Counted from the first letter of the stretch, positions 22,796 to 40,110 are shown. The stretch is DNA of 64,000 bases from Candidatus Kaiserbacteria bacterium (GCA_963699165.1 OY969413.1:63506-127505); one strand, 5' to 3'. The notes: generated by a model from the letters alone, not told the origin. A program made the numbers and translations.

Positions 22796-22825
22796 TGACG
22801 GAGCCATGTCCGAGTCTTCGAGGAC

Positions 22826-22885
22826 GGCGAGTCGGGGTCGAGAGCGCTTAGCAAAATGCGAATGCTTGGAGCATTTTACTTAGCG
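22826..22885 (+). other. conserved hairpin element, copy 1 (paralogous to 40060..40110)
   Basis: GCGCTTAGCAAAATGC-GAATGCTTGGA-GCATTTTACTTAGCGACTCGTGACC shares ~85% identity with copy 2. Stem substitutions are compensatory (AAAATGC/GCATTTT here versus AGAATGC/GCATTCT in copy 2). Confidence 0.45.
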
Positions 22886-23003
22886 ACTCGTGACCACAAA
22901 CGAGTGGGCCGACTCAGCTCATCAACTGCTTGCCGTGCGCCCAGGAGTCGATTCCTGCCAGTGGCACCAAAATCGCCGCGACGAGATGCTACACTAAAAG
23001 CAT

Positions 23004-23291
23004 ATGGACCCGGAAACTCGACGATTGCTTGAGGAGACGCACGCGCTTGCGCGCGACAATAACCAAATGCTCCGCGCCATACGGCGGCATCAGTGGCTCA
23101 GCTTTTTCTCCAACGTTATCTTCTGGATACTGATGATTGTCTTGCCGTTATATTTTTATCAGCAGTATCTTCAACCCGAAATAGCGAAGTTTTTGGCGAG
23201 CTATGGTATAAACACAAGCCCAAGCCCGCTCAATTTGCCATCTTCCGCAGATCTGCAAAAGCTGATAAACTCGTATAAAGCGGGGAAGTAG
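23004..23291 (+). CDS. small hypothetical membrane protein
   Basis: 95-aa ORF with one hydrophobic stretch (FFSNVIFWILMIVLPLYFY), immediately upstream of tRNA-Phe. Confidence 0.4.
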   Translation: MDPETRRLLEETHALARDNNQMLRAIRRHQWLSFFSNVIFWILMIVLPLYFYQQYLQPEIAKFLASYGINTSPSPLNLPSSADLQKLINSYKAGK

Positions 23292-23301
23292 CCCGCCGTT
23301 T

Positions 23302-23374
23302 GCTTGGATAGCTCAGTTGGTAGAGCACTTCCCTGAAGAGGAAGGGGTCCCCGGTTCGAGCCCGGGTCCAAGCA
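23302..23374 (+). tRNA. tRNA-Phe (anticodon GAA); integration site (attL) of the downstream element
   Basis: GCTTGGATAGCTCAGTTGGTAGAGCACTTCCCTGAAGAGGAAGGGGTCCCCGGTTCGAGCCCGGGTCCAAGCA. Its 3'-terminal 19 bp is duplicated at ~40111..40129. Confidence 0.9.
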
Positions 23375-23534
23375 CACACTAGTGACAAGTCGAGTGACCG
23401 AGTCACCTCGAATATTTACGCCGTATTTTTCACATTTGGTTCGAGACCTGGAAACGCAGCTAACTTGAGATAGGTTCGGACTCCGAGGAGCATGCCTCCT
23501 GTCAAATAGGTTCAGTTTGAAGTAATATACGCTC

Positions 23535-23912
23535 ATGCATGACCTGACGCCCTATAAAGACAAACCGTCTGACGAGTGGCTTTCTGTTACAGAGAAGTTG
23601 ATTAAGGAACATCCATTAGGACCTGAAGCGATGGTCGCAGTAGTAAAGAAATCATGGGATCAGATTTTCACGAGCAAAATCGGTGGAGTTATCCAGATAG
23701 GAGAAGAGATCGCCCTTACCCCTCAAATGATTGGTAATTTTCTGCATGTATTAGTTGCACATAATCTTTCAGAGAGCTCGCCGGAACTATGGCGGATAGA
23801 GGCTGCCGCTGGGGAAAAAGATGTTGTGTACGTGCCGGACGACTACTACTCATTGTACCGACCCCTATTCTTCAGACCACTTCCTAGACGAGTGAAGATA
23901 GTGTACGGGTGA
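23535..23912 (+). pseudogene. hypothetical protein, C-terminally truncated by IS-A copy 1
   Basis: The ORF is real-looking up to ~23853. Its last ~19 codons (..RPLFFRPLPRRVKIVYG) are encoded by the IS-A terminal repeat, and the same tail appears wherever IS-A abuts an ORF. Confidence 0.4.
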
Positions 23913-24696
23913 TGTGCGATTTCGCAAACTCTCTCGGTGCCATCTTGAGTGTTGAGTGTATACGCACGGTGTTGTACCGGTGAATTGTCTGATAGATTTC
24001 AGCAACAAGTTCACCAAGCGTATCGAAGCGATTGGGATCGCCCAGATCAGTTTTGAATTTTCCATAGAACGATTCTTGGTACCCGTTCTCCCACGGACAG
24101 CCCTTTTTTGAGCGAGAGATGCTGATGCCGAAATTGATGAGCATCTCTCGGAAGGATGCGGCATTGTATTCCACTCCGTTGTCGCTGTGAAAGATGGTGG
24201 GACGAGGATGGTTGAGAAGTGCCGCGCACAATGCCTGCGTCACAAGTACGGTTCCACCTCGCGTACCAATGGCGAGCCCAACGACACTTCGAGTGTATAC
24301 GTCCATGGTGGTTGCCACACGAATGTCTTTCCCTTTGAAATACACATGAGTGAAATCAGCGACCCATGCTTGATGCGGATAGGCGGGTACAATCCGCATC
24401 AGGAGATTTGGATACTCCACGGCTTGTTTCCTTGATTTCCTCCACCGTCTTCCTCTTCTTCGATATGCTTTGATACCAAAGAGTCGCATGACTCTTTGAA
24501 CCTTCTTTTTGTTCTCCTTGAGATACAGGGCAACTCTCCGGTATCCATACGAAGGAAACTCTCGAAGGACTTCTTCAATACGGCATTTGAGTGCCCAGTC
24601 TTTGTCAGGCTTCTTCTTTTGATACCAGAAGGTGGAACGAGCTATACCAAGAGTACGCGCTGTTGTGCGCGTACCAATCGGAGATTCTTTGCTCAC
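23884..24696 (-). CDS. IS3-family transposase OrfB (DDE integrase core)
   Basis: 270-aa rve domain (..WVADFTHVY..HSDNGVEY..CPWENGYQESFYGKFK..). Confidence 0.85.
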   Translation of the reverse strand: MSKESPIGTRTTARTLGIARSTFWYQKKKPDKDWALKCRIEEVLREFPSYGYRRVALYLKENKKKVQRVMRLFGIKAYRRRGRRWRKSRKQAVEYPNLLMRIVPAYPHQAWVADFTHVYFKGKDIRVATTMDVYTRSVVGLAIGTRGGTVLVTQALCAALLNHPRPTIFHSDNGVEYNAASFREMLINFGISISRSKKGCPWENGYQESFYGKFKTDLGDPNRFDTLGELVAEIYQTIHRYNTVRIHSTLKMAPREFAKSHITRTLSSLV

Positions 24697-24950
24697 TTCT
24701 TTTTTTGGGTTTCAGACAGCTTGAGCGTCATGAGTCCAACAAGACGAAGGAGTTCGTCATTCTCTTTTCGAAGTCTCGCAATCTCAAGAACAGATGCGGT
24801 ACCGTCTTGCACTTTCGCACCAAGCCAGCCATAGATGGTGGTCTCGTGGATACCATGCTCTTTGGCCGCTTGGGCGACAGTGACACCATCGTTCTTGATT
24901 CGATTAATGATTTGTTCCTTCACCTCAGGAGCGATGCGGTATTGCTTCAT
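24693..24950 (-). CDS. IS3-family transposase OrfA (HTH)
   Basis: 85 aa: MKQYRIAPEVKEQIINRIKNDGVTVAQAAKEHGIHETTIYGWL.. with a leucine-zipper tail. Confidence 0.85.
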   Translation of the reverse strand: MKQYRIAPEVKEQIINRIKNDGVTVAQAAKEHGIHETTIYGWLGAKVQDGTASVLEIARLRKENDELLRLVGLMTLKLSETQKKK

Positions 24951-25029
24951 ATGACGTCATTCTAGCGGTTAATCCCGTCTAGAACATGGTCTGAAATTTG
25001 GGGGTCAGGTCAATTGTCATCCATAAGTT

Positions 25030-25587
25030 CTATCTCTGCTTATATTTTCCCACAATCCGCTTTTTAATATCCTCGAGTTCTCGTTCGTTGAAAAGTTTAT
25101 CGTACTTCCATATTTTTCCTCCTGTGTCGAAAGCGCCGATGTATTGTTCACAATAAATTCTCGGATTAATGGCATACGCAGCGCCGCGTCGTTCCCAACC
25201 CGATGTCATGCCGTAGTCGTAGATGATATCGTGACCCAACGATCCTATCCATTGATGCGCGAGAATATTTCGCCAGTCGTGGATTATTTCGGCGATCTTG
25301 GAGAATTTTGTATCCTCAGAGTCACCATCGACATATGTCTCCAAGAACCATTTATATCCATCGAGTCCATTTTGGTCGACAAACACCTCCGCAATTGTCA
25401 GGGCGACGGCATGAATGCCGAGAAAAAGAAGTGTCGTTTGAGCCTGTCCGACCGTGAGCTCGATTTCATTATTGAAAAAATTGTCGATGGAATTCAGTAA
25501 TGTCTCGATAGCTTCAATCGGATGACCGTTTTGAAGACGTTGCAATCGATGTTCTTTTGACTCCGATTCGTGGGCGTTATTTCTCAT
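25030..25587 (-). CDS. hypothetical protein downstream of the serine recombinase
   Basis: 185-aa ORF with protein-like composition and no recognisable domain. Confidence 0.45.
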   Translation of the reverse strand: MRNNAHESESKEHRLQRLQNGHPIEAIETLLNSIDNFFNNEIELTVGQAQTTLLFLGIHAVALTIAEVFVDQNGLDGYKWFLETYVDGDSEDTKFSKIAEIIHDWRNILAHQWIGSLGHDIIYDYGMTSGWERRGAAYAINPRIYCEQYIGAFDTGGKIWKYDKLFNERELEDIKKRIVGKYKQR

Positions 25588-25633
25588 ATCTCTGGAGTAT
25601 AGAGCAAATTTCTGGTAAGGAAATTCCCAGATG

Positions 25634-26983
25634 CTAGATATTGCTCAGATCAACGTTTCCCATTATTACTTCTCGGTCTTTTAGTATCAACTGACTTTTA
25701 AGGCATGACAGTAGTTCTCGCTTTTCCGTAATCGTACCGTCCTTAAGTAAATATTTTGCATAGGTACGTATGTCGATATCGGGTGCACGATCTTTTTTCT
25801 TCGCACCGAGCACGCCCATTCGGAATTTGTTATATCGCACGATCTCTTCTTCTATTTTTTCTCGCATACCAATCTCATCCAGGTCGAGTGTGTCAAGCAG
25901 TTTCGATAGTTCTTCGATTAGTGCAGTCTCGTTAATGGCCGGATTCGTGCAGTCGGTTTTTGTACTTCGCGTACACATATAGTACACATGGCGATTCGCG
26001 CCTCCATTCTTCAGTTTCTTGAATTTCTCATCGGCAGTGATGCCGCTTCCGCAGTATCCGCATTTAATGAGTTTCGTAAATGCGAACTCCTTGCTCTCGG
26101 TCTTGGGGATATAGCGATCAGTGACCGCTTCATGTACTTTGTCGAATAATTCCTTCGTAATGAGTGGCTCATGTTTACCTTGATACCAATTGCCGCTCTC
26201 GACCGGGTATTCAAATTCGCCGTAGTAGAAGGAGTTGTGAAGAAGGAGAAAGATATTCCCTAAGGAAAGTGTTTTGCCGGTTCGTGTCTTGAATCCCATT
26301 TTCTTGAGCCACCGAAATACATCTCTACCACTCCATCCATCGTTACCAACTTTCTCGAATATCTGACGCACTACAATTGCGCGTTTCGGATCAGGTCGTA
26401 CTTGGCACTTCTTGTCGACATTCTTTTCTGGAAGATATCCGGTTGGTGCAACGCTCGGCCGCCATCCCGTTTCGCAACGTGCTCGCAGTCCGCGCTTCAC
26501 ATTGATTATTTTTTGATCGTTCTCGAGCTTCGCCTGCGAGCCGAGAATCATGAGCATGAATTTCTCGTTCGGATTGTTTGTGAATGTCTGACTATAGGTG
26601 CGGATCTCAACGAGCTTCTTTTGGTCAAACAGATCCACGACGGCGCCAAGGTCTCCGGCGTTACGACTTAACCGATCCGGTGCCCACGTCAGAATGCCGT
26701 TGAATTTGCCACATCGAATATCATCGAGAAGTTGGTTGTATATCGGCCTTTGGCCGACTTCCTTAGAGGAGTGCGATTCGCGCTTGATCTCAACGATCTC
26801 GAGACTTTCGCGCGAAGCGATGTCCGTCATTTCTTTCACTTGTGATTCGATGGAAAGAATTTGCCGATCTTCTTCCAAAGTACTTTTTCTTGCATAAAGG
26901 CAGTATTTAACCTTGATGGGTTCCGGTTTGACGGCCTGCCTCATAATGCCGCTAAAGGGTGCCCGAATTGCTGTTTGTGTCAT
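25634..26983 (-). CDS. large serine recombinase (integrase of the tRNA-Phe element)
   Basis: An N-terminal resolvase catalytic domain (YARKST..S..Q..) is followed by a recombinase domain, a Cys-rich zinc ribbon (CGYCGSGI..YYMCTRS) and a C-terminal coiled-coil. It reads toward tRNA-Phe. Confidence 0.85.
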   Translation of the reverse strand: MTQTAIRAPFSGIMRQAVKPEPIKVKYCLYARKSTLEEDRQILSIESQVKEMTDIASRESLEIVEIKRESHSSKEVGQRPIYNQLLDDIRCGKFNGILTWAPDRLSRNAGDLGAVVDLFDQKKLVEIRTYSQTFTNNPNEKFMLMILGSQAKLENDQKIINVKRGLRARCETGWRPSVAPTGYLPEKNVDKKCQVRPDPKRAIVVRQIFEKVGNDGWSGRDVFRWLKKMGFKTRTGKTLSLGNIFLLLHNSFYYGEFEYPVESGNWYQGKHEPLITKELFDKVHEAVTDRYIPKTESKEFAFTKLIKCGYCGSGITADEKFKKLKNGGANRHVYYMCTRSTKTDCTNPAINETALIEELSKLLDTLDLDEIGMREKIEEEIVRYNKFRMGVLGAKKKDRAPDIDIRTYAKYLLKDGTITEKRELLSCLKSQLILKDREVIMGNVDLSNI

Positions 26984-27135
26984 ACAGACACAAGGAATGA
27001 CGCTGACCGCTCTAGGAGTCCAGAGCGTCCGATGCCCTGAGTTGATAAGAAACGGCTTTATTTCAGGTCATTTTTGTGCTAAAATCACAAAATCCACTCA
27101 CTCTGTGGTCACTTTAAATTGGAGAAAAATAGCTA

Positions 27136-28586
27136 TGTTTGAAAATTCATTCAAAAATATAGACCAAATACTTCATACAGATTCTGGTTCAGCCACTGAA
27201 CTGGACTATGTCGAGCAGACATCGTGGATTCTCTTTTTGAAATACCTTGACGATTTGGACGAGGCAAAGAAAACGGAATCGGCCTTAGCAGGCAAAAAAT
27301 ACAGCTATATTCTTGATCCGCAGTATCGTTGGAACACTTGGGCTGCTCCAAAAACCGCTGATGGGAAAATAGATCATAACAAGACGCTCGACGGTGATGA
27401 TTTAAATGATTTCGTGAATCAAAAGCTATTTCCGTATTTGAAAAAATTTAAAGCCGAGGAACCGAATACTATTGAATATAAGATTGGTGAGATTTTTAGC
27501 GAGCTTAAGAATAAGATTTCTAGCGGCTATAAGTTGCGTGAGATTTTGAATATTGTTGATCGGATGCACTTCCGTCTATATGAAGAGAAGCATGAGCTGT
27601 CGCACCTCTACGAGGCAAAAATTAAAAATATGGGAAATGCCGGTAGAAATGGTGGCGAATACTACACACCGCGACCTCTTATTAAAACCATTGTAAAAGT
27701 AGTCGCGCCGACCATCGGCGAGACAATCTATGACGGTGCCTGTGGCTCGGCAGGATTCTTGGTGGAGTCGTTTAATTTTCTTACGCAGAATCAAGCCAAG
27801 CTGTCATCGGCGCAGATGGCGACACTTCAGAACAAGACGTTTTATGGAAAAGAAATAAAATCCCTTGCCTACATTATCGGCATCATGAATATGATCCTGC
27901 ACGGTATTGAAGCGCCGAACATCAGGCATATGAACACGCTCGCGCAGAACATTAACGACATTCAAGAAAAAGACCGCTACGATATTGTTCTAGCCAACCC
28001 TCCTTTTGGTGCGGGTATTGGGCGAGAGATTCAGCAAAACTTCCCCATAAAGACTGGCGAGACGGCATTTCTATTTCTTCAACACTTCATAAAAATACTC
28101 AAAGCTGGTGGTCGCGCGGGAATTGTTATTAAAAATACATTCCTATCCAACACCGACAATGCTTCTGTCAGTCTCCGCAAACTCCTTCTGGAGAACTGCA
28201 ACCTACATACCGTACTCGATCTGCCGGGAGGTGTTTTCGCCGGGGCAGGAGTGAAGACGGTCGTGCTCTTCTTTGAGAAAGGAAAGCCGACGAAGAAGGT
28301 GTGGTTCTATCAGCTGAATCTAAAGCGCAACCTCGGCAAGACCAATCCCCTTAATGAAGCAGACTTGGCAGAGTTTGTGGCGCTACAGAAGACGAAGGCG
28401 GATAGCGAGAATTCATGGAGCGTTGATATCTCAAGTGTTGATCAAAACACCTTTGACCTGTCAGTGAAGAATCCAAACAAAGGTGATGGGGTAGCTCTTC
28501 GTAGCCCTAAAGAGATTTTGAAACAAATGAAGGATTTAGATAAGGAAAGTGAAAAAATAGTGGCATCTCTAGAAAAACAACTATGA
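27136..28586 (+). CDS. HsdM-like N6-adenine DNA methyltransferase (type I RM M-subunit family) with no HsdS/HsdR partner
   Basis: It has an HsdM_N-like N-terminus, an NPPFG catalytic motif and a SAM-binding GACGSAGFL. An RBS GGAGAAAAA precedes the ATG at 27136. Its stop overlaps the start of the SIR2 gene (cTATGA). Confidence 0.8.
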
Positions 28587-29012
28587 AAGAACTAAAAGAT
28601 ATTAAAAAAACAATAGATAGCGCAAACATTAATTTCTTAATTGGATCAGGGTTGTCTAGTCCTTTTCTAGAAATTCTCAACCAAATTGAAACCAAGCTAA
28701 CGAAAGCAGAAAACGAAAAGAACGATGTTGAAGTTTTAAGATTAATGAAGGAATACTTTGAGAAATCGATGCTTGGAAACCTAAAAATCGTTGCTGAAAT
28801 TACTGATAAGGTTAAAGATGGAGTTCTAAAAAATTATGAAGATTTTTATAAGAAAATTAATCACATAGTTTTAAAGAGGGAGAGTTCCATTCTAACAAAA
28901 CAAATTAATGTCTTTACCACAAACGTAGATATTTTCTCTGAAAAGGCGCTAGAAAATACAGGGATTGGAAGGTACCCCTTTCTTCGTACACTCATTCTAT
29001 AAGTATAGGATA

Positions 29013-29795
29013 CTATGCTCTGCTCAGAGCAACAAACTCTCTTGGCGCCATACGCAGTGCTGAGTGAATGCGAGCGGTATTGTGATAGTGGATGGTGAGG
29101 TAGATCTCAGCCACTAATTCACCTAACGTGTCGAATCGGTTCGGATCACCCAGGTCAATCTTGAACCCTTTGTAGAAGGACTCTTGGTAGCCATTCTCCC
29201 AGGGACATCCAGGACGAGACATAGATTGCTGTATGCCGATCGTTGCCACGAGCATCGCATAATCCTTTGAGGCATACTCGCTGCCTTGATCCGAATGGAT
29301 GACACGAGGTGGCGATTTGTGATGCAATGCAGAGAGAAGTGCATTCATGATGAGTTGCGTGCTGTGGGTGGTGAGGACTGACACACCGACAATCTCTCGG
29401 GAATAGACGTCAAGGATGGTAGCGACGTATACCCAGTACCCGTGGTACTTGAGGTAGGTGAAGTCACTCGCCCAGATGTCACCGTCCTGCTCGGGAGTTT
29501 GATGGAGCAAGAAGTTCGGGAATATACTGTCTTTTGTCTTTAGCACAAATCGCTTCTTTGCGGTCCTCCGATATGGTTTGATACCGAACAATTTCATCAC
29601 ACGCAGAATGCGCTTTTTGTTGACTTTGAGGTAGAGTGCCAACCGTTTGTGCCCATAGGCGGGATGGCTATGCAGAGCTTCTTCGATGAGTTGCTTTGTG
29701 TGCCAATCCCTCCGAGCCTGCTTCGGCTCGTAGTACAGCGTACTGCGAGCAATACCGCTCTCGCGTGCAAGAGCACTCTTGTTTTCTCTCATCAA
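29013..29795 (-). CDS. IS3-family transposase OrfB (IS-B)
   Basis: 260-aa rve integrase core (..HSDQGSEYAS..CPWENGYQESFYKGFK..). Confidence 0.85.
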   Translation of the reverse strand: MMRENKSALARESGIARSTLYYEPKQARRDWHTKQLIEEALHSHPAYGHKRLALYLKVNKKRILRVMKLFGIKPYRRTAKKRFVLKTKDSIFPNFLLHQTPEQDGDIWASDFTYLKYHGYWVYVATILDVYSREIVGVSVLTTHSTQLIMNALLSALHHKSPPRVIHSDQGSEYASKDYAMLVATIGIQQSMSRPGCPWENGYQESFYKGFKIDLGDPNRFDTLGELVAEIYLTIHYHNTARIHSALRMAPREFVALSRA

Positions 29796-30052
29796 GAGCC
29801 CCTTTTTTCTCCGTTTGAGAGTTTAAACGTCAATTCTCCGATGAGTGCTTTAAGGAGACCGTTCTCCTTCTTCACTCTGTTGTGCTCAATGATACTCACT
29901 CCTTTTGCAGAGGTGCCAAGCCAAGCATAGATAGTGACGGTACTGACTCCGTGTTCTTTCGCTGCCTCAGCGACACTGATGCCATCGTTTTTGATACGGT
30001 TGATAATCTGCTCCTTAATCTCAGGAGCAATACGGTATGCTTTCTTTGCCAT
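29792..30052 (-). CDS. IS3-family transposase OrfA (IS-B)
   Basis: 86 aa: MAKKAYRIAPEIKEQIINRIKNDGISVAEAAKEHGVSTVTIYAWL.. Confidence 0.85.
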   Translation of the reverse strand: MAKKAYRIAPEIKEQIINRIKNDGISVAEAAKEHGVSTVTIYAWLGTSAKGVSIIEHNRVKKENGLLKALIGELTFKLSNGEKRGS

Positions 30053-31010
30053 AGGTACATTCTAAATTAGCTGCTGGTATTTAGAATGAGTGTCCGACGT
30101 TTGGGGTACCTTGCAGATCGATTTTAATGATGGTTTCAACGGAAGATTCAATCCTAAATATGATGTGGGAAATTTCAAGAAGTCTTATTTCAAGAAGAGT
30201 CTTCATTATGAGAACACGTCCGAAATACCTGTATTTAATATACTGAAGTTACACGGGTCTCTTTCTTGGAAAGAAACTGATAGAGAGATTTATTTGGATA
30301 GTGTCTTGGAACAAGTAAAAGAAGTCGAAAATAATAAAGTGTCTGAATTTTATGATTGTTTCAAAAAATTGATGGTCGTTAATCCAACTAAACAAAAGTT
30401 TGGAGACACATTATTAAATCAACGCTACTACGACTTGCTCAGAATTTTCTCTAACGAACTAGAGAAGGATAATACCGTACTATTCGCGATGGGCTTTTCA
30501 TTTATGGATGAGCACATTTACGACCTAACATTGAGAGTTGCAAATTCTAATCCTACTCTGAATATTTACATATTTAGTCACGGCTCCAAACCGAGTGATA
30601 CCTATCTAAAACTGGAAGCGGATGCTAAAAATAAAAATATAAAAATCCTTATTCCGGAAAGTGGAAAAGAGTACAGTCTAGAAACAATAACTTCAGACTG
30701 TTTTGATAAGATTATTCTCCCTGAAAAAGAGGTTGGCAAAGGGCTTATAGATACTTCATTGCCACAAAAAGATGACTGACGACCTTACCTTAATGGAGAA
30801 ATACATAATTGATAACTCAATTTTTAGAATTGGGAAGGTTATTGAAATATCAGGTCAATCTGTAAAAGTAAAAGTAGATACTGGGAAAAACACATCCTCA
30901 ATCTTGTATAAGGGGGAGATAATGCAAAATATTTCTGTACAAGGATATGTGAAAATAAAGAAGTGGAAGGTACCCCTTTCTTCGTACACTCATTCTATAA
31001 GTATAGGATA

Positions 31011-31793
31011 CTATGCTCTGCTCAGAGCAACAAACTCTCTTGGCGCCATACGCAGTGCTGAGTGAATGCGAGCGGTATTGTGATAGTGGATGGTGAGGTA
31101 GATCTCAGCCACTAATTCACCTAACGTGTCGAATCGGTTCGGATCACCCAGGTCAATCTTGAACCCTTTGTAGAAGGACTCTTGGTAGCCATTCTCCCAG
31201 GGACATCCAGGACGAGACATAGATTGCTGTATGCCGATCGTTGCCACGAGCATCGCATAATCCTTTGAGGCATACTCGCTGCCTTGATCCGAATGGATGA
31301 CACGAGGTGGCGATTTGTGATGTAGCGCAGAGAGAAGTGCATTCATGATGAGTTGCGTGCTGTGGGTGGTGAGGACTGACACACCGACAATCTCTCGGGA
31401 ATAGACGTCAAGGATGGTAGCGACGTATACCCAGTACCCGTGGTACTTGAGGTAGGTGAAGTCACTCGCCCAGATGTCACCGTCCTGCTCGGGAGTTTGA
31501 TGGAGCAAGAAGTTCGGGAATATACTGTCTTTTGTCTTTAGCACAAATCGCTTCTTTGCGGTCCTCCGATATGGTTTGATACCGAACAATTTCATCACAC
31601 GCAGAATGCGCTTTTTGTTGACTTTGAGGTAGAGTGCCAACCGTTTGTGCCCATAGGCGGGATGGCTATGCAGAGCTTCTTCGATGAGTTGCTTTGTGTG
31701 CCAATCCCTCCGAGCCTGCTTCGGCTCGTAGTACAGCGTACTGCGAGCAATACCGCTCTCGCGTGCAAGAGCACTCTTGTTTTCTCTCATCAA
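31011..31793 (-). CDS. IS3-family transposase OrfB (IS-B copy 2)
   Basis: Identical to 29013..29795. Confidence 0.85.
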   Translation of the reverse strand: MMRENKSALARESGIARSTLYYEPKQARRDWHTKQLIEEALHSHPAYGHKRLALYLKVNKKRILRVMKLFGIKPYRRTAKKRFVLKTKDSIFPNFLLHQTPEQDGDIWASDFTYLKYHGYWVYVATILDVYSREIVGVSVLTTHSTQLIMNALLSALHHKSPPRVIHSDQGSEYASKDYAMLVATIGIQQSMSRPGCPWENGYQESFYKGFKIDLGDPNRFDTLGELVAEIYLTIHYHNTARIHSALRMAPREFVALSRA

Positions 31794-32050: not shown

Positions 32051-33246
32051 AGGTACATTCTAAATTAGCTGCTGGTATTTAGAATGAGTGTCCGACGTTT
32101 GGGGTACCTTGCATAAAGAATTGCCATTAATAGACAATACTTGTTTTTTACTCACAAAAGAGGAGTTTAATAAAATCCATGAATTTGTTAATAAAGATGA
32201 CAAACCTATCGAAATAGGAAGATTGGAATACGACGATGGTCAAAAAATAGAACTAGGCATAAACAAATTATTTGCTAGCCATATAGGTATATTTGGTAAT
32301 ACTGGAAGCGGTAAATCATATACGCTCGCAAAAATCTATAGAGAATTATTCAAAATCTTTAAAGATAGTCCGAAATTTCAAAAAAATGCAAAGATCTTCC
32401 TGATTGATTTTAATGGCGAATATATTGGAGAACTGGAAGAGAGTACTGGTAAATACAAAAGTAGAGATGTAATCGTTGAAGAGAAATATAAGAATATATA
32501 CGAACTAACGACGAGAAAAAAGATTGAAGATATTACGGAAGAAGAAAAGTTTCCTATCCACGAATCAGCAATAAAAGATTCTACGTTTTGGTCAATTTTT
32601 CTCTCGGCAACTGAAAAGACCCAGATACCTTTTTTGGAGAGAGCTATTAGAGATACTTATATTGAAGAAAGATTGAAGAAAGAGAAATCTTTTAAAGACC
32701 TTCTTAGTGCCAAGATATTTGATGCAGTAACACAAATAGACAAAAAGACCGAGAAGAGTGTAATAACGGATTTGTTAAACGAATTATTTCATTATTTAGA
32801 TAAAAACGAATCTATAAAAGAAGCGGAGAAATACTTCAGAGAGAACTACGGTATTTTCCAAAAGGAGGGAAAATCAGTATTTAAGTTAAATAAAAATAAT
32901 GCAGATCACTACTCGGATAATGCTAATGACATAAAGACATTTCAGGATGATATAAATGAGCAGGTTGCAAAAATATCGGAAGTAAAAGTCGACGAACTGT
33001 CCACAATAAAGAGATTGGGGCTACAAATCATAATTAAATACTACGATGAAATGATTCGTGGATTTTCAAACAGAGAACATCTCTCTCCTTTGATCAAGCG
33101 ACTTGACCAAAGGATTTTGGATCTAGAGAAGGTCTTAGTAGTAGTGGAAAAAATCAGTAAATCTGAAAAGAACTTCACTGTTATTGACCTGACCCCCAAA
33201 TTTCAGACCATGTTCTAGACGGGATTAACCGCTAGAATGACGTCAT

Positions 33247-33504
33247 ATGAAGCAATACCGCATCGCTCCTGAGGTGAAGGAACAAATCATTAATCGAATC
33301 AAGAACGATGGTGTCACTGTCGCCCAAGCGGCCAAAGAGCATGGTATCCACGAGACCACCATCTATGGCTGGCTTGGTGCGAAAGTGCAAGACGGTACCG
33401 CATCTGTTCTTGAGATTGCGAGACTTCGAAAAGAGAATGACGAACTCCTTCGTCTTGTTGGACTCATGACGCTCAAGCTGTCTGAAACCCAAAAAAAGAA
33501 GTGA
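33247..33504 (+). CDS. IS3-family transposase OrfA (IS-A copy 2)
   Basis: Identical to 24693..24950. Confidence 0.85.
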   Translation: MKQYRIAPEVKEQIINRIKNDGVTVAQAAKEHGIHETTIYGWLGAKVQDGTASVLEIARLRKENDELLRLVGLMTLKLSETQKKK

Positions 33505-34313
33505 GCAAAGAATCTCCGATTGGTACGCGCACAACAGCGCGTACTCTTGGTATAGCTCGTTCCACCTTCTGGTATCAAAAGAAGAAGCCTGACAAAGACT
33601 GGGCACTCAAATGCCGTATTGAAGAAGTCCTTCGAGAGTTTCCTTCGTATGGATACCGGAGAGTTGCCCTGTATCTCAAGGAGAACAAAAAGAAGGTTCA
33701 AAGAGTCATGCGACTCTTTGGTATCAAAGCATATCGAAGAAGAGGAAGACGGTGGAGGAAATCAAGGAAACAAGCCGTGGAGTATCCAAATCTCCTGATG
33801 CGGATTGTACCCGCCTATCCGCATCAAGCATGGGTCGCTGATTTCACTCATGTGTATTTCAAAGGGAAAGACATTCGTGTGGCAACCACCATGGACGTAT
33901 ACACTCGAAGTGTCGTTGGGCTCGCCATTGGTACGCGAGGTGGAACCGTACTTGTGACGCAGGCATTGTGCGCGGCACTTCTCAACCATCCTCGTCCCAC
34001 CATCTTTCACAGCGACAACGGAGTGGAATACAATGCCGCATCCTTCCGAGAGATGCTCATCAATTTCGGCATCAGCATCTCTCGCTCAAAAAAGGGCTGT
34101 CCGTGGGAGAACGGGTACCAAGAATCGTTCTATGGAAAATTCAAAACTGATCTGGGCGATCCCAATCGCTTCGATACGCTTGGTGAACTTGTTGCTGAAA
34201 TCTATCAGACAATTCACCGGTACAACACCGTGCGTATACACTCAACACTCAAGATGGCACCGAGAGAGTTTGCGAAATCGCACATCACCCGTACACTATC
34301 TTCACTCGTCTAG
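33501..34313 (+). CDS. IS3-family transposase OrfB (IS-A copy 2)
   Basis: Identical to 23884..24696. Confidence 0.85.
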   Translation: MSKESPIGTRTTARTLGIARSTFWYQKKKPDKDWALKCRIEEVLREFPSYGYRRVALYLKENKKKVQRVMRLFGIKAYRRRGRRWRKSRKQAVEYPNLLMRIVPAYPHQAWVADFTHVYFKGKDIRVATTMDVYTRSVVGLAIGTRGGTVLVTQALCAALLNHPRPTIFHSDNGVEYNAASFREMLINFGISISRSKKGCPWENGYQESFYGKFKTDLGDPNRFDTLGELVAEIYQTIHRYNTVRIHSTLKMAPREFAKSHITRTLSSLV

Positions 34314-36083
34314 GAAGTGGTCTGAAGAATAGGGGTCGGTACACTTTGCCTCCTTCGCTCTTATAAGAAGATTCTGTGCGGGATTGTATCCACCTCTCGT
34401 TGTTTCCTGCTTTACGATAAGTTCTTGGTCGGCATCCTTCTCGTTTAACGGATATGGCGGCGGAGGCGTATATGAACCTTCTGGAATGCGAATCTTTCCC
34501 GCCAAACGATCGCGCATTTCCGAAAACGCAAACCATAGCGCCATCAGTGCATCGCCAGTGTGGCCATCGGGGAACGCTCGCATTTCATTTACGAGTTGCG
34601 CGACGAGTTGTCGCGTTCGCGCGTCACTCTGACTATAAGGAAGGATGATCTTCCTCTGTTCAAAGAGAACCGCTAAACTATTCACGCCGATCGCTGGGTC
34701 ATTCTTTTCTCCGCCGGTCTTGTAGCTGGTGACGAGTGCACCGGAGTCGCCCAAGTCGCGATACATCATTTCCTGAAATCCGTTCGTCTCGACACGAGTT
34801 GCGGTCGGTCTCACGATCGCTTCATTGCGGATGACCATATCGCACGTTTCTTTCGGTGAGAACTTCCCGCGCCGTATGTTGCGAAGCACATAGTCGCCAA
34901 CTTTAAAAGTTCCGTCCGTTGAGCCGCGGAGAACACGGTCGAGAGTGAGAAGAACGGTGTCGTCATTCCAATTCTCGGTAGCGATAGCGAGATCGAGACC
35001 AGCGGTTGTCATTTCCACGTCATACTCGGTATACGGCGCGTCTTGCAAGATCAAGTCCTTGCCCTTAGCAAGTGCTGCTTCAATGTCCTTCTCAAGGAAC
35101 TTCTGATTCGGACGAATTGAAGGATCACACATATACATGCGTGCGAAGGCATATGGATTGGCGATGCGTTTCAGATAAAGATCTCCGTACGAGAAACGCT
35201 CCGGCCAGAGGACATCTATACCTTCCTCCATTTCCGCTTTATGCTCGGCACGATACTCGCTCGCTTTTGCTGTTTTTTCTTCAGGTGAAAGCGATTCATC
35301 GAGATGGATATTTGCCCATTCCTGCCACATATCCTGACGATTCGCTTCGTGCAGTATCGATGGTACGCGTTTTCTCACTTGAAATTGCGGGTCCTTGAGA
35401 AGATTGTTCATCAAGTCGTCCATGTGCCATGTGTTGCCAAGACAGATGAGACGACCGTCCGTCATTAAGACCGGCAGAAGCGTCGTGTATACCCAATCCT
35501 TGATCTTCGCACGCTGCTCCTCGGTCGCGGCGTTTTCCTGCGTCACCACATCATCAAGAATGATGATATCGGCACGCTTGGAAACGATTGACCCGAAGAG
35601 ACCGACGGCATTTACAGTCGGATCTTTTAGATTCAGTCCTTCGCGCTCGACCGTGAAAGAACTTCCGGTCCAATGTTCCTCACGTTTCTTTCCGTGACGC
35701 AGGCGCGGGGCGACACTGCGACGCTTCGGGTCGATCATCTTCGACCAAAGTCGATATTTCGGATTGCGCTCGATGTGCCCAATGATATCTGAAACGAATC
35801 CACGCGCGATTTCGCCAGTGCTCGATACGAGAAGAATGCGAATCTCGCGATTTTTGGCGATCTCCCAGAGAGGGTATGCGATGGAGCTATGGGTTGATTT
35901 ACCAAAACCGCGCGGCATCGCGATGGCGAGTTTTTGATAGGTATAGTTGGAGAGAGCATCGTCAAGTTCGTCCTGAAACGGCGCATTGTTTAGACCAATA
36001 ATTTCGGACACGAAGACGCGAAAATGCTCGGCCGCTATCGCGCAAAAGACGGCCGCTTCTTCAAGTTTTGGAATGTTACCCAT
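34302..36083 (-). CDS. terL: phage terminase large subunit (ATPase + nuclease); last ~14 codons supplied by IS-A copy 2 (C-terminally truncated)
   Basis: It has Walker A AMPRGFGKST and Walker B IIILDDV, followed by a C-terminal RNaseH-like nuclease domain. The start is taken at MGNIPKLEEAAVF; the longest ORF begins at 36122. Confidence 0.75.
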   Translation of the reverse strand: MGNIPKLEEAAVFCAIAAEHFRVFVSEIIGLNNAPFQDELDDALSNYTYQKLAIAMPRGFGKSTHSSIAYPLWEIAKNREIRILLVSSTGEIARGFVSDIIGHIERNPKYRLWSKMIDPKRRSVAPRLRHGKKREEHWTGSSFTVEREGLNLKDPTVNAVGLFGSIVSKRADIIILDDVVTQENAATEEQRAKIKDWVYTTLLPVLMTDGRLICLGNTWHMDDLMNNLLKDPQFQVRKRVPSILHEANRQDMWQEWANIHLDESLSPEEKTAKASEYRAEHKAEMEEGIDVLWPERFSYGDLYLKRIANPYAFARMYMCDPSIRPNQKFLEKDIEAALAKGKDLILQDAPYTEYDVEMTTAGLDLAIATENWNDDTVLLTLDRVLRGSTDGTFKVGDYVLRNIRRGKFSPKETCDMVIRNEAIVRPTATRVETNGFQEMMYRDLGDSGALVTSYKTGGEKNDPAIGVNSLAVLFEQRKIILPYSQSDARTRQLVAQLVNEMRAFPDGHTGDALMALWFAFSEMRDRLAGKIRIPEGSYTPPPPYPLNEKDADQELIVKQETTRGGYNPAQNLLIRAKEAKCTDPYSSDHFLDE

Positions 36084-36495
36084 GGTCGTTTGTTTTAGGG
36101 TGATTAAGATACGGTTCGACAAGCCGCTTGGTTTCGGGTTTCAGTGTTCCGAACACTTCGAAGAAGATATTTTCATCTTCATCACGAGCGATGGCGAAGG
36201 CGGACTCGAAGGCGCGCTGACGATAATCGGGATGCTTATTTTTCAACCAGAATATCGTTGCCGTGAGATTGCCGTTTTTGATGCCGGAGAGTATCTGACT
36301 CTCGGCGGCATCGTTCATGAGCGCCGTGCCTTCGGCGAGCGCGTCATCAACGAACTTCGCGAATTCCGAATCTTCTTTCTTCCACCTGTACAGGCTCGCG
36401 CGACTCATGCCGGTTTTCTGACATGCGACTTCAATGATCGGCGTTTTGCGTAATTGTTCAAGCAACAATTCTTTGGTACGAATAGTCTTTTTCAT
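36076..36495 (-). CDS. phage terminase small subunit-like HTH DNA-binding protein
   Basis: 139 aa with an N-terminal HTH (..KTGMSRASLYRWKKEDSEF..) immediately upstream of terL. Confidence 0.5.
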   Translation of the reverse strand: MKKTIRTKELLLEQLRKTPIIEVACQKTGMSRASLYRWKKEDSEFAKFVDDALAEGTALMNDAAESQILSGIKNGNLTATIFWLKNKHPDYRQRAFESAFAIARDEDENIFFEVFGTLKPETKRLVEPYLNHPKTNDHG

Positions 36496-37274
36496 ATTTG
36501 TTTTGCTTTAAGGTTGGTACAGTGCTCCCAGCGAGAAATCGCTGTGAGGCAATATTCGAGATCAATTTCGACCGCGAAGCATCGACGCTTCGTTTGCTCG
36601 CACGCTAACAGCGTGGTACCGCTGCCAAGAAATCCGTCGTATACCACATCGCCGATTTCGCTTGAGTTGAGAATCAAACGACGAATAAGTCCGATGGGTT
36701 TGGTTGTCGGATGAAATTTGCTTTTGACAGGACGCGGATAGAACAAAACCGACTTATCTTTTGAGTGACGGAATATATGCGTGCCATGCCAGCCGTAAAG
36801 GATCAATTCATGTTGGGGTGCGTAATCGAGGCGACCGATAACCGCTTGCGATTTCACCCACACAAGAAGCTGCGCGACCTTGAATCCAGCGTCTAACATT
36901 CCTTCGCGAAGCGACCACACCATTTTGTCTGCATTGAACACATACGCGGCGTTTTTTCGGGCGAGATAAGGAGCGATTGTTTCAAGCCATGCGCGGTTGA
37001 ACGCCCGATATGATTCATCGGATTGTAGTTCGTCGTTCGCAACAATTTTATCTTTTGAGAGTTTTGAGAATCCGCGTTTAGATTCCACTGCCGAGACGGC
37101 ATACGGTACGTCACAACATACGAGATTTATATGGATATTACCTATAAGCCTCTCCAGCAGTTTTTTGTCACGTGCGTCGCCGTATGCGATGCGGTGATCG
37201 CCAAGTTGCCAGATAGTGCCAGGCTTAATTGAGTTTGCGGGCTTTGATTCCAGTTGCGTTTTCATACCGTTCAA
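36492..37274 (-). CDS. DNA methyltransferase (N6_N4_Mtase family, phage-type)
   Basis: It has a DVPY (DPPY-like) motif and the C-terminal SAM-binding motif VVYDGFLGSGTTLLACEQTKRRCFAVEID. Confidence 0.8.
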   Translation of the reverse strand: MNGMKTQLESKPANSIKPGTIWQLGDHRIAYGDARDKKLLERLIGNIHINLVCCDVPYAVSAVESKRGFSKLSKDKIVANDELQSDESYRAFNRAWLETIAPYLARKNAAYVFNADKMVWSLREGMLDAGFKVAQLLVWVKSQAVIGRLDYAPQHELILYGWHGTHIFRHSKDKSVLFYPRPVKSKFHPTTKPIGLIRRLILNSSEIGDVVYDGFLGSGTTLLACEQTKRRCFAVEIDLEYCLTAISRWEHCTNLKAKQI

Positions 37275-38508
37275 TAATTACGTCCACGAATATCGGCTCT
37301 GCTTCGACCATGTAGCAGATTCGTTTCATCTGATCGGCGGCCATGAGCGTACTACCCGAGCCACCAAAGAGATCCAGCACCGCATCACCCGGCTTCGTAC
37401 AACGCTTGAGTGGCCGTTCGTGCAAGGTCACTGGCTTTTGCGTCGGATGACAATATTCTTGACTGGCGACGCGTTTCGCTAACCAAATATCCGCTTGATC
37501 CATGATGTCGTCGAGCAGTTTATTGCCTGACGGTCCAAGTTCTTTGTTCAGAACTTCTGCGAAGTTCTGCCCGACGGGTGCGATGTACGGCTTATTGCGC
37601 GTCGCATAGACGCAGGGCTCGTAACACTTTCCGAAGGCTACGCCAGGTACAGGGTTGGCGGGTCCCTTAATCCACAAACAAACTCGGCGATTTACGAGAC
37701 CAGCATCGGCAGAAAGTGACTGCACCATACCAATATATTTTTGGTCGCAGAAAAAGAATATGTGACAATCAGGGTCGCATACAACAAGCGCGTTCTCCAT
37801 CGAGCGTTTCAAGAAAGAACGATATTCTTCGTCTGGTTTCGAGTCGTCTACATTTCCGCCATACGAACCTTTGCCGCCAACGCCACGATCGTAATCAAGC
37901 GAGATGTTATAGGGCGGATCACAATAAATCATTCCGATTTTTGCCCCACAGGTAACTTTCTTTACAGTTTCGATATCGAGCGAACTTCCGCAGGCAAGAC
38001 GGTGCGACCCGAGCGCGTATAGATCGCCAGTTTTCGCCTTCGGTTCCTTCACGCGCTTTACCGCCTCGTCAAAATCAAATTCATCATCCGAAGTTTCAAG
38101 CGCGTCCGCAAAGATAATCGACAGATCCGAATCATCGAAGCCCGATGCGAGCATCGTATCGATATCGAAGTATTGGGAAATGAGACCATAATCCCAATCG
38201 CCATGAATACGATTACTTGAAAGCAGGTAACGATCGTACTCCGCCTTTGTGAGCTTTCTCGAAGGAACGCGTACTGGAATTTCTTCATCGATACGACCCA
38301 TGGCGGCTAACGCGGCGATACGCTGATGACCTGCAACTAGAGAGTTATCAAGGTCTATAACAGGAGCTTCAACAATTCCGAATTCTTTCAAGCTCTTTTT
38401 GAGGTCTGTCATCTGTTTCGGACTCATAATCCTTGGATTGTGTGGATTCTGAACGAGGTCGGAAACTTTTCTCGTCTCCGTCGTCCACGTGAGCGGCTGC
38501 TTTTTCAT
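37225..38508 (-). CDS. ParB-like nuclease domain fused to DNA methyltransferase
   Basis: It has an N-terminal ParB/Srx domain (..IVEAPVIDLDNSLVAGHQRIAA..) and a C-terminal MTase (..MIYCDPPYNISLDYD.., ..VLDLFGGSGSTLMAA..). The start is chosen at MKKQPLTW; the longest ORF begins at 38613. Confidence 0.75.
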   Translation of the reverse strand: MKKQPLTWTTETRKVSDLVQNPHNPRIMSPKQMTDLKKSLKEFGIVEAPVIDLDNSLVAGHQRIAALAAMGRIDEEIPVRVPSRKLTKAEYDRYLLSSNRIHGDWDYGLISQYFDIDTMLASGFDDSDLSIIFADALETSDDEFDFDEAVKRVKEPKAKTGDLYALGSHRLACGSSLDIETVKKVTCGAKIGMIYCDPPYNISLDYDRGVGGKGSYGGNVDDSKPDEEYRSFLKRSMENALVVCDPDCHIFFFCDQKYIGMVQSLSADAGLVNRRVCLWIKGPANPVPGVAFGKCYEPCVYATRNKPYIAPVGQNFAEVLNKELGPSGNKLLDDIMDQADIWLAKRVASQEYCHPTQKPVTLHERPLKRCTKPGDAVLDLFGGSGSTLMAADQMKRICYMVEAEPIFVDVIIERYENATGIKARKLN

Positions 38509-38627
38509 ATCGGTATATTTGCTGTTAAAAGGCGCATCGCGCGCCCTACAGCAGATACCCACGACTTTCGGCATTTTTGTGACATATAAAAAGCCGCATG
38601 GAAGCGGCTTCAACGGGGAATCCTATT

Positions 38628-39689
38628 TTAGGACAGTAATGGCTTCAGTTTCGGGAGAGCGCGGCTTTTCGCCTTTCGTTCGGTAGCAGTGAGAATTTCA
38701 CCGCGATAATCTTTTTCTATGGCCAGTCGCTCTTTTGGAGGGAGCTTTGTGATCGCACGAGCGATATCGATTTCTTGGATATTGATGGTATCAGTATGCC
38801 TTGCGAGTACCGCATCTGCTCGGGTTTCATCATTGAGAATTTTATCCAACGATTCTTCCAAAAAATTATCTTTGATTTCGTACTTGCCGCGCCCGAGGTT
38901 GTAATCTTTATGGCGGAGACGAAGCCTCTCCGGAAGTTCCGATAGATACAAAGGTTTTCGACGCGGCTTAGCAAGCAGTTTCTGCGTCTCATCTACTGCA
39001 AACGTGAGATTGCCAAGGGAAGTTGAGGCATAGAGATACTGGTAGGTCGATTTGAAACCGCTCCATGCGCGCGTAAGACGCCGCATTAAATCTGCACGAT
39101 GAGGCCCACACGGATCCTTTTCCTTTACACGAGCGAGGAGAGCTCCAACCTCAACAATTTCTGCCCGCCTTATTTCGAGCTCTTTAATGGTTTTGCACCA
39201 GCCGCGAATCATTTCTTTTGTAACGGATGGATACTTTCCCCGGATTTCATTCCATGCTTCTGGAGTGAATTGGTCTTCCCATGACCAAAGAATCTCCGAT
39301 TGATGATCTGGAGAGAACGGCGGTTCGGATTCTTCAGAGATTTGCAATAATGGATTATGTAAAGTTTTGCTCTCTTCGTCCAAATATCCTTCGTATAAAA
39401 TTTCGGTTAGGGAATGCAGAGATGCTAAAACTTCGGGCGATTCTTCACAATCTTTGGCCGCAAAAAGGAAGTACTGTAGGCAAATCAATTGCAATTGAAG
39501 GTCGTTGAGGAAGAAAAGATCTGGGTGTTGAGCCCGCTTCAGTGCGAATTCTTTCATAACAAGACCCAGATCTGCCCATACATCTTCTGCCGTGCGTGAG
39601 GGCAGACGCAAACGCAGTTGGAAGTTATGAATGGCTTGATCGAACTTCGTTCGTTCGTGATTGATAACGGTGCTGTGCGGAGTGGTCAT
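38628..39689 (-). CDS. hypothetical protein (phage-like cargo)
   Basis: 353-aa ORF with protein-like composition and no recognisable domain. Confidence 0.5.
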   Translation of the reverse strand: MTTPHSTVINHERTKFDQAIHNFQLRLRLPSRTAEDVWADLGLVMKEFALKRAQHPDLFFLNDLQLQLICLQYFLFAAKDCEESPEVLASLHSLTEILYEGYLDEESKTLHNPLLQISEESEPPFSPDHQSEILWSWEDQFTPEAWNEIRGKYPSVTKEMIRGWCKTIKELEIRRAEIVEVGALLARVKEKDPCGPHRADLMRRLTRAWSGFKSTYQYLYASTSLGNLTFAVDETQKLLAKPRRKPLYLSELPERLRLRHKDYNLGRGKYEIKDNFLEESLDKILNDETRADAVLARHTDTINIQEIDIARAITKLPPKERLAIEKDYRGEILTATERKAKSRALPKLKPLLS

Positions 39690-40059
39690 ACTCTAATTTT
39701 ACCCCCAATTCAAGCTTTTTATTACGAGAGTGTCGTGAGACACGGCTTCGTAGATTCAGCTACTTTTTTATAGCGCTTCATTCGTTTCAATTCTTAGTGA
39801 ATACGCCATATTCCGCCAAGAATGCTACATCAGTCGCATTCTTCGATTTTGACCCCCAGACCGAGTGGCTTCGTCATGCTACACTGAAAGGATGTCAAAA
39901 ACCCTTACGGTGCCTCGCCGGGCAAGGTTCTAGACGGACTTGGGGCACCTGAACGCGAGTGAAAGGCATTGGACAGCATGCCGACTGCTCGGCATGTGGC
40001 CGGGCTCGAATGCCGGAGCGATGTTCGGCTGAAAGCCGAACCGCGAGGCGGGGTAGCGA

Positions 40060-40110
40060 ATCTTAGCAGAATGCGAATGCGTGGAGCATTCTGCTTAGCA
40101 ATTCGTGACC
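40060..40110 (+). other. conserved hairpin element, copy 2, abutting attR
   Basis: GAATCTTAGCAGAATGC-GAATGCGTGGA-GCATTCTGCTTAGCAATTCGTGACC forms a 13-bp near-perfect stem and lies immediately 5' of the 19-bp tRNA-Phe repeat. Confidence 0.45.

Follow-up and report, generated by a model that had tools for sequence, protein, structure and literature searches.

A family of covarying two-hairpin elements associated with displaced tRNA 3′ ends in Patescibacteria

Two hairpin elements downstream of tRNA genes

We analysed a stretch of 64,000 nt from Candidatus Kaiserbacteria bacterium (GCA_963699165.1, OY969413.1:63506-127505), hereafter the window; all coordinates are positions in it, and labels such as L003 or L009 denote related stretches from public genomes and metagenomes. 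The window carries two copies of a hairpin element, the first behind a tRNA-Arg gene and the second at the far end of a 16.7-kb island that lies between repeats of a tRNA-Phe 3′ end. The original prediction, made from the sequence alone, had described these two copies and noted that their stem differences (AAAATGC/GCATTTT versus AGAATGC/GCATTCT) compensate each other. Both points are borne out: a 38-nt degenerate consensus matches the window only at 22847-22884 and 40062-40099, both on the plus strand, and has no match in 100 dinucleotide shuffles. Similarity between the copies runs about 50 nt farther 5′ than had been described. The hairpin seen at first was real, but its 60-75 bp represent the M1/M3 portion of a core of about 100 nt with two domains, located at 22795-22895 (copy 1) and 40012-40110 (copy 2) on the plus strand.

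The first domain, M2 (22795-22835 and 40012-40049), consists of a helix P1, an internal loop C-G-GA/GA-G with tandem G·A, and a hairpin P2. The second, M3 (22836-22895 and 40052-40110), opens with P3, GGUCG/UGACC with a conserved G·U, and continues as a long stem capped by the hairpin M1 (22856-22874 and 40071-40089), whose 11-nt loop is invariant (GAAUGCNUGGA, or GAAUGCUUGGA as written in copy 1). The fold z-scores of copies 1 and 2 are −4.4 and −4.7. Both copies lie outside any credible open reading frame (ORF); the only ORF that overlaps either of them is a mechanically called TTG ORF (39969-40316) at copy 2.

The gene preceding copy 1 is tRNA-Arg(CCT) (22675-22747, plus strand), found by both ARAGORN and Rfam. 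Copy 1 starts 48 nt 3′ of it, beyond a terminator-like hairpin H (22754-22785, plus strand) that was detected in a terminator scan, has a 13-bp stem, the loop TCTGCT and a following U-run, and forms part of the conserved unit. At 22940-22969 (plus strand), 44 nt past copy 1, we read a degenerate remnant resembling a tRNA 3′ half with a CCA end, CCCAGGAGTCGATTCCTGCCAGTGGCACCA. It holds the complement of nt 56-65 of the tRNA-Arg T-arm and, judging by its sequence, may be an ancient displaced fragment or what is left of a second unit after decay. An IS1595-family transposase gene (21472-22275, minus strand) precedes tRNA-Arg and copy 1 by about 400 bp, with no established link to the element.

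Copy 2 is embedded in a more complete unit. The last 19 nt of the tRNA-Phe(GAA) gene (23302-23375, plus strand), from T-loop position C56 onwards (23357-23375), recur exactly at 40110-40128 on the plus strand as a displaced tRNA-Phe 3′ end, CGAGCCCGGGTCCAAGCAC, which shares its first base with the last base of M3. On the other side of the core, sequence and minimum-free-energy (MFE) fold define a scaffold (39966-40007, plus strand) made of the 5′ strand of a helix S1, GCATTGGAC (39966-39974), a hairpin H with the loop CUGC (39977-39996), and the 5′ strand of a helix S2, CCGGGCTC (40000-40007). The latter is the exact complement of nt 2-9 of the displaced fragment, while the partner of the S1 strand is the acceptor 3′ strand of the same fragment, so that the displaced tRNA end provides the 3′ strands of both helices. 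S1, S2 and H all form in the MFE fold of the entire unit (39962-40130; −88.6 kcal/mol, z = −6.7).

Further units in the window

A covariance model, R1, was built from the core and used to search the window. It matched at 50878-50974 and 50562-50658 on the minus strand with 33.6 and 33.3 bits, and together with sequence reading these matches delimit a four-unit tandem array at about 50335-51042 (minus strand), with unit A at 51042-50866, unit B at 50868-50725, unit C at 50727-50550 and unit D from 50552 to about 50335. Array units read CAC|AAAA, hairpin H and UUUUG, followed by GCGC(R)GUAA-GGGACUC, M2, an M3 without M1, and CGAGUCCCGCCAC or CGAGCCCGCGCAC, a sequence reminiscent of a tRNA-Val 3′ end that has been shortened. 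Unit A folds with z = −4.1, and in unit B the P3 helix has changed from GGUC/GACC to GGCC/GGCC in a compensatory manner.

Another unit (61483-61655, minus strand) lies immediately 3′ of tRNA-Glu (61656-61728). It comprises hairpin H (61609-61655) and a core of 88 nt (61500-61587) whose two hairpins resemble M2 (GA/GA loop) and M3 (GGUCA/UGACC). [quoted passage not shown] The fold of this unit reaches −87.4 kcal/mol (z = −8.4). Since the array and the tRNA-Glu unit add to copies 1 and 2, the window holds at least seven units and not the two of the original prediction.

The motifs CGTGACCGTTAGGCC(C)TCAA and GGT(N)CGGTACC are shared between 58220-58320 (minus strand), downstream of tRNA-Val, and 51057-51300 (minus strand), upstream of the array; by their sequence they may represent additional module types belonging to this repeat system.

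Relatives and module order

Public genomes and metagenomes were scanned for the M1 loop pattern, which returned 34 stretches. About 16 of these contain true relatives and the remaining ones are chance matches within genes. Nearly all true relatives belong to Patescibacteria, whose genomes are tiny, joined by two Bacteroidaceae bins with a variant form; the M1 loop is identical between the two groups and the C-G-GA/GA-G loop is invariant. The position of M1 varies: window copies 1 and 2, L012, L016 and L029 carry it at the tip of M3, L003 has it between M2 and M3, and in L004, L011, L018 and L025 it lies 5′ of M2. Type B, another type of core, is found 3′ of an M1-like hairpin in L008, L015, L023, L032 and L034.

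Several loci bear signs of mobility or duplication. Three identical 168-bp units stand in tandem in L009 (Bacteroidaceae), the window has its four-unit array, and the cores of copy 1 and L029 are about 90% identical by eye and lie behind different tRNAs (Arg-CCT versus Lys-CTT), with no ORF common to L029 and the window. Nesting was observed in a group of 5S-linked loci. In L018, L025 and L023, and similarly but inverted in L011, a further 5S copy, truncated at its 5′ end, occurs alongside an intact 5S rRNA gene and is interrupted by three insertions, namely M1-M2-M3 in reverse complement, a hairpin and a type B module. In L023 the type B module splits M3, which is whole in L025, amounting to a presence/absence difference at a homologous site. 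A location of these copies downstream of 5S rRNA was rejected, as Rfam and re-reading place them antisense inside the partial second 5S copy. The 3′ trailers of the two 5S copies are swapped between L018 (3620-3964, reverse strand) and L025 (650-965).

In L008 (about 3560-3900, minus strand) a type B module follows immediately after the rplL stop codon, and CTGAAGTAAYACGGAAG from the rplL 3′ end is repeated about 250 nt downstream, beside an M2-like hairpin. Insertion may therefore not be confined to RNA genes.

Compensatory changes and strand asymmetry

Five type A sequences gave an RNAalifold consensus of 33 pairs, 13 of which show double compensatory changes, and 93.7% of the cells are paired. 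With ten model-aligned sequences the values rose to 22 of 33 pairs and 95.7% of cells, in an alignment that leans towards structure because it was fitted to the model. When paired cells were counted, none of 500 shuffles reached the observed values, and slid controls had 30-43% of cells paired. The comparison of copy 1 with L029 added compensatory pairs in P1 and P4, besides those in hairpin H, whose stem is fully compensated while its loop and flanks are conserved. Selection for pairing acts on the stems, as the original prediction had argued from two copies.

Folding also distinguished the two strands. In ten of ten elements the plus strand folded 4.4-10.7 kcal/mol better than its complement, and the G·U of P3 is invariant in five of the five sequences and present in eight of the ten. 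A conserved G·U and better folding of one strand would not be explained by a double-stranded protein-binding arm. The elements thus display compensatory changes, strand asymmetry and a non-coding location, which are the generic marks of a structured non-coding RNA (ncRNA), and the selected product is probably a structured RNA. The small structured RNA that had been one of the two roles suggested at the outset is still the best reading of the core.

Displaced tRNA ends and a model for the units

The relevant loci contain 22 tRNAs, and nine of them have an exact 15-22-nt repeat of their 3′ end located 3′ of a core; the other 13 have no such repeat. The nine are tRNA-Phe in the window and in L003, tRNA-Glu in the window, tRNA-Met in L016, tRNA-Ser in L034, tRNA-Val in L004, tRNA-Ala in L015, tRNA-Arg in L010 (Bacteroidaceae) and, in L009 (Bacteroidaceae), a tRNA that is truncated by the end of the contig. 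Eight of the repeats lie 128-169 nt downstream of the tRNA, and that of the window tRNA-Phe is 16.7 kb away. In six cases the repeat starts 19 nt before the annotated tRNA end, which corresponds to T-loop C56, and in the others 18, 17 and 24 nt before it. Expressed by position, it begins at C56 or within 2 nt of it in eight type A or Bacteroidaceae units that involve at least seven different tRNAs. In type A units (G/U)UGAC immediately precedes it.

The complement of the displaced fragment is present 5′ of the core in window copy 2, the tRNA-Glu unit, L010, L015, L016, L009 and L034. In the tRNA-Glu unit it has an A opposite U71, where the tRNA itself forms G2·U71, and hence it is templated on the 3′ strand and is no relic of the tRNA 5′ half. 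Complement and fragment together correspond to the acceptor/T-stem minihelix of the adjoining tRNA. As the repeat starts near C56 and the complement lies 5′ of the core, the core occupies the place of the T-loop in this minihelix. A full unit thus consists of the tRNA, a short A-rich trailer, the GC hairpin H (in many cases with a U-run), a strand complementary to the last 6-20 nt of the tRNA, the core and a second tRNA 3′ end, and its predicted fold is a three-way junction closed by the tRNA minihelix. Both the tRNA-Glu unit and the tRNA-Ser unit of L034 have a U-run after the displaced fragment.

The tRNA-Phe unit of L003 is set in the same gene order as that of the window. A small ORF (37% identity) is followed by tRNA-Phe, the unit (169 nt), the displaced fragment, and the genes for HSP20 (47%), PrsW and an aminoacyl-tRNA synthetase, which in the window are the host genes past the island; L003 has no island. 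Its displaced fragment matches L003's own tRNA-Phe variant.

We tentatively favour, at a little under an even chance, the reading that the units are miniature integrative cassettes which target tRNA 3′ ends and in which selection acts on a structured RNA product with a tRNA minihelix as its closing helix. A unit would be a non-autonomous integrative element that recombines at or near C56, supplying the tRNA with a replacement 3′ end and a terminator and displacing the old 3′ end, which would become the 3′ strand of the closing helix of the cassette RNA. Repeated events would build the tandem arrays and nested insertions. The architecture, covariation, strand bias, fragment position, arrays, nesting and island-free orthologous locus are observed; transcription, mobility, a responsible enzyme and a function of the RNA are inferred.

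A number of observations weigh against this reading. A displaced fragment is missing from copy 1, L012 and L029, and neither L004 nor the copies associated with 5S show the tRNA arrangement, so the core can exist without the integration signature. The gap between H and the core is too short for a promoter, and an H with a U-run should terminate transcription. It is implausible that a double-stranded circle of 130-170 bp would serve as a substrate for recombination. No recombinase, transposase or recurring protein was found beside the mini units, and all-against-all BLAST of the ORFs of 14 loci returned no recurring neighbour protein save for the synteny of L003 and L034 with the window. Two lineages with protein identities of only 37-47% have the tRNA-Phe unit in common at one locus, which could mark an old, vertically inherited host RNA gene instead of a mobile element. 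Finally, the sample is small, with about 25 units from about 16 loci that were all ascertained through one 19-nt loop pattern.

Alternatively, the units could be a non-mobile family of host small-RNA genes. The core would be a functional RNA, binding for example a protein through the two tandem-G·A motifs and the M1 loop, and would be displayed on a copied acceptor/T-stem minihelix to which RNase P, 3′ trimming and CCA addition would give defined ends and stability. Covariation and strand asymmetry apply equally here, and the closing helix is an exact acceptor/T-stem minihelix. In addition, tRNA-linked units are always co-oriented with the tRNA and just downstream of it, and the tRNA-Phe unit shares its locus between distant relatives while the fragments match the tRNA-Phe variant of their own genome. 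L016 also fits, where the displaced tRNA-Met fragment (6023-6042 of that stretch) ends in GCCAGCACCA although the tRNA gene has no encoded CCA (GCCAGCACAAAG); from the sequence, this CCA could be due to chance or to copying of the fragment from a mature tRNA. However, exact minihelices from at least seven tRNAs, arising repeatedly, need a templated or recombinational mechanism, the acceptor strands of the array units are truncated, and nested insertions and identical tandem copies resemble selfish spread. Copy 1, L029 and L012 lack any minihelix, and the 5S-linked copies run antisense to the surrounding 5S-like sequence. We regard a non-mobile host RNA as doubtful, if still a serious contender.

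The 16.7-kb island and its recombinase

The original prediction had placed both hairpins next to tRNA/att sites and had named, as one candidate role, an attP-arm binding site for a recombinase or recombination directionality factor. The adjacency to tRNA 3′ ends and displaced fragments was confirmed, but it is not specific to the island or to serine-recombinase att sites, since units of 128-169 bp and two Bacteroidaceae loci have no recombinase. The neighbours of L009 and L010, the Bacteroidaceae loci that were checked, are housekeeping genes.

Between the tRNA-Phe repeats the island encodes a large serine recombinase (25634-26983), a truncated ScaI-like gene, a type I restriction-modification methylase, further DNA methylases, a terminase-like gene, copies of IS3-family insertion sequences (IS) and a SIR2-HerA defence pair that an IS appears to have split. 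Relatives of the recombinase are encoded in five viral contigs, with identities of 24-67% overall and 55-67% for four of the five, and these contigs contain no M1, M3, type B module or displaced tRNA fragment, which is weak evidence because the contigs may not reach the far att end. In two of them, L039 and L041, the recombinase relative adjoins a tRNA gene without a core; in L039 the relative is 67% identical and lies 120 nt from tRNA-Gln, convergent with it as the window recombinase is with tRNA-Phe.

A double-stranded attP-arm site for the integrase or directionality factor of this island would agree with the position of copy 2 directly at the crossover-side repeat, with the large serine recombinase and with the convergent arrangement in L039. 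It would leave unexplained that stems covary while their sequence is not conserved, and neither the conserved G·U nor the strand asymmetry is expected of a duplex protein site. The contigs of the recombinase relatives have no element, with the caveat on their far ends given above; the Bacteroidaceae mini units have no nearby recombinase, no protein recurs at other units, and the orthologous unit in L003 is free of an island. We consider an attP-arm function most improbable.

We judge it rather probable that copy 2 is a resident unit and no cargo of the island, on the grounds of the island-free unit in L003, the typical unit size that the window unit attains when the island is removed, and the recombinase relatives that lack a core. 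Alternatively, the island could be a cargo-bearing member of the same family; more probably, it inserted later into the trailer of a resident mini unit. A displaced tRNA fragment beside an island need not mark the att site of that island, and island boundaries drawn from such repeats may be wrong in these genomes, because the 19-nt repeat may belong to a resident unit of 160 nt.

A 7-bp direct repeat, CGAGTGA (23391-23397 and 39956-39962), lies near the island ends, inside the interval of the 19-nt repeats. It could represent the island's own junctions, and is only a lead because we estimate its chance probability at about 0.2. The 353-aa ORF adjoining copy 2 (38628-39689) does not resemble a recombinase; it had no significant Pfam, PHROG or PDB match and a single marginal PADLOC hit (PDC-M39B, E = 0.009). 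Two ORFs with identical IS3-family Pfam profiles are inverted relative to each other (23884-24696, minus strand; 33501-34313, plus strand). Two IS-like ORFs, 29013-29795 and 31011-31793, both on the minus strand, are 1998 bp apart, with a perfect direct duplication (28966-29265 = 30964-31263), and the apparently split SIR2 gene (28583-29002 and 30090-30779) stands beside the HerA gene (32088-33218).

Comparison with known systems

The elements matched no family in Rfam 15, whether the whole window was scanned at gathering thresholds or E values up to 1-10 were allowed for 39800-40350, 49800-52200 and 15 related loci; all matches were to tRNA, rRNA or RNase P and lie clear of the elements. The families without a match include the hammerhead, twister, pistol, hatchet and hepatitis delta virus-like ribozymes and HEARO/omega RNA. 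BLAST of copy 2 gave no plasmid match and, in phages, a single 26-nt hit attributable to chance, and full-text literature searches found no description of the element. A size of 130-170 bp, a conserved covarying fold, an exact complement of the target and a junction at C56 or within 2 nt of it are each unlike anything found, and the family is undescribed and has a distinctive architecture.

The closest parallel is the integration of islands into tRNA genes, whose signature is a regenerated gene with a displaced fragment at the island endpoints (PMC4383910). Decayed elements that retain attL and attR are known, as is tandem accretion (PMC5704250). The units share with such islands and their derivatives the intact tRNA, the insert and the exact copy of the tRNA 3′ end, as well as tandem arrays and integrase-less units with both junctions. 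In terms of the Islander definition, nine tRNAs have a regenerated gene and a displaced 3′ fragment, and the integrase has no room in mini units of 128-169 bp; only the 16.7-kb interval of the window has a large serine recombinase. The units differ from islands in their size of 128-169 bp, the covarying folded core, the exact complement of the displaced fragment, a repeat start at or within 2 nt of C56 on at least seven different tRNAs, and in that no cognate integrase was identified. [quoted passage not shown]

The bridge and seek RNAs of IS110/IS1111 elements and the omega RNAs of TnpB/IscB similarly combine a scaffold at the element end with an adjacent segment that matches the target and varies. 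The cassette RNA could be the specificity determinant of a programmable integration, in which the strand complementary to the last 17-20 nt of the tRNA guides it to the donor junction and the target, and the M1/M2/M3 scaffold would recruit a recombinase encoded elsewhere or act as a ribozyme. This would explain why the same core is clamped to at least seven different tRNA ends with exact complements, and one scaffold would home to any stable-RNA 3′ end by a change of guide. Unlike in those systems, no DEDD recombinase, TnpB or IscB gene lies next to any copy checked (Pfam found no DEDD transposase, OrfB_IS605 or IscB domain in flanking ORFs), the matching segments pair together in a helix (S1, S2) instead of being exposed in open loops, and there is no sequence or Rfam similarity. 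Such guiding is a quite unlikely extension of the cassette reading.

Resemblance to tmRNA and YrlA lies in an acceptor/T-stem-like helix of tRNA sequence with a large T-loop insertion, but the units have no T-loop, D-arm or tag reading frame; ARAGORN predicted no tmRNA, and the Rfam models of tmRNA, YrlA and group I introns gave no match. A group I intron in the T-loop of a tmRNA is likewise an RNA with a T-loop insertion; any group I intron is far larger than the core of about 100 nt. The tRNA group I introns described in Patescibacteria are located at position 35/36 and are much larger (PMC13011429), for which reason a group I intron in a tRNA was rejected. So were tmRNA, Y RNA, a hammerhead- or hepatitis delta virus-like ribozyme and group II intron domain V, whose defining motifs are absent from the sequence. 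We also rejected a retroelement primer-binding site, as the complement omits the CCA end, except possibly in L016, and a cis-regulatory leader, because the downstream genes differ between copies.

One could also envisage a new small ribozyme or circular-RNA system, in which unit-length RNAs from the arrays would cleave or ligate at the junction of M3 and C56 with S1 and S2 joining the ends, in the manner of permuted tRNA genes or retrozymes. The three-way junction with invariant junction nucleotides and tandem G·A pairs, the circularly permutable modules, the tandem arrays and the precise junction position all suit this possibility. We hold it to be very unlikely, given that many copies are single rather than tandem and that none of the Rfam ribozymes is similar.

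A further comparison concerns repetitive extragenic palindromic (REP) sequences, bacterial interspersed mosaic elements (BIME), miniature inverted-repeat transposable elements (MITE) and terminators, which are also hairpin repeats of 100-170 bp in 3′ flanks and sometimes tandem or nested; hairpin H is itself terminator-like. The units could accordingly be selfish, terminator-associated repeats that spread into the 3′ flanks of highly transcribed stable-RNA genes by some transposase or by slippage or fold-back synthesis, and whose hairpins are kept only as terminators or as single-stranded DNA substrates of the transposase. This would account for the high local copy number of at least seven in 64 kb, the arrays and nesting, the variable module order (M1 inside M3, before M3 or before M2), the A-tract/hairpin/U-tract element in each unit and the exact inverted target copy beside the insert, which fits fold-back synthesis. 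It is harder to reconcile with unpaired nucleotides that are conserved across phyla (M1 loop, C-G-GA/GA-G), as such families are normally species-specific, or with a defined three-way junction tied to the 3′ end of an adjacent stable RNA. No inverted match links the left end (trailer and H) with the right one, the sole inverted repeat is the complement of the displaced fragment, and the 15-22-nt repeat is a tRNA end, a pattern that departs from that of a MITE. An intrinsic terminator or REP does not describe the core either, with its invariant loop, C-G-GA/GA-G and conserved G·U; H alone fits. No RAYT or IS200/IS605 gene was found among the ORFs of the window and loci that were scanned by Pfam, which cover a minority of the neighbouring ORFs. 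Overall, a purely selfish repeat of this kind appears unlikely.

If the units are indeed integrative cassettes with a structured RNA product, they would be the smallest known elements with a full tRNA-gene integration signature, combined with a covarying RNA fold and an exact target complement. They would furthermore constitute a new structured-RNA family for Patescibacteria, a phylum with very few characterised ncRNAs, provide a natural tRNA-minihelix scaffold for the display of RNA modules, and raise the possibility that a tRNA end is chosen as target by base pairing and not by a protein.

Additional features of the window

RNase P RNA (14011-14457, minus strand; class A, 122.5 bits) has several large insertions, one of about 60 nt near its 3′ end, and none of them resembles M1, M2 or M3.

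Beyond the displaced tRNA-Phe fragment of copy 2, a degenerate tRNA-Phe-like 3′ half at about 40129-40180 precedes four 25-bp tandem units (40185-40282, plus strand), each of which forms a small hairpin, CATCGCACTGTCGAGTGCGATG. The boundary motif GCAC-YTGAACGYSAG occurs at 39945, 40125 and 40286, and because of this threefold recurrence copy 2 may be the central unit of a three-unit array.

Neither copy 1 nor copy 2 gave a sigma-70-like promoter match, and a −10-like box, TGnTACACT (39878-39886), lies 73 nt upstream of the copy 2 scaffold. The motif TGnTAnACT-nAAAGn-ATG, in which a −10-like box stands 6-7 nt before a start codon, is present at 20475-20492, 22986-23003 and 39876-39893 (plus strand), a spacing that suggests leaderless mRNAs. 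The third of these sites would open an ORF of 12 codons and could drive transcription into copy 2.

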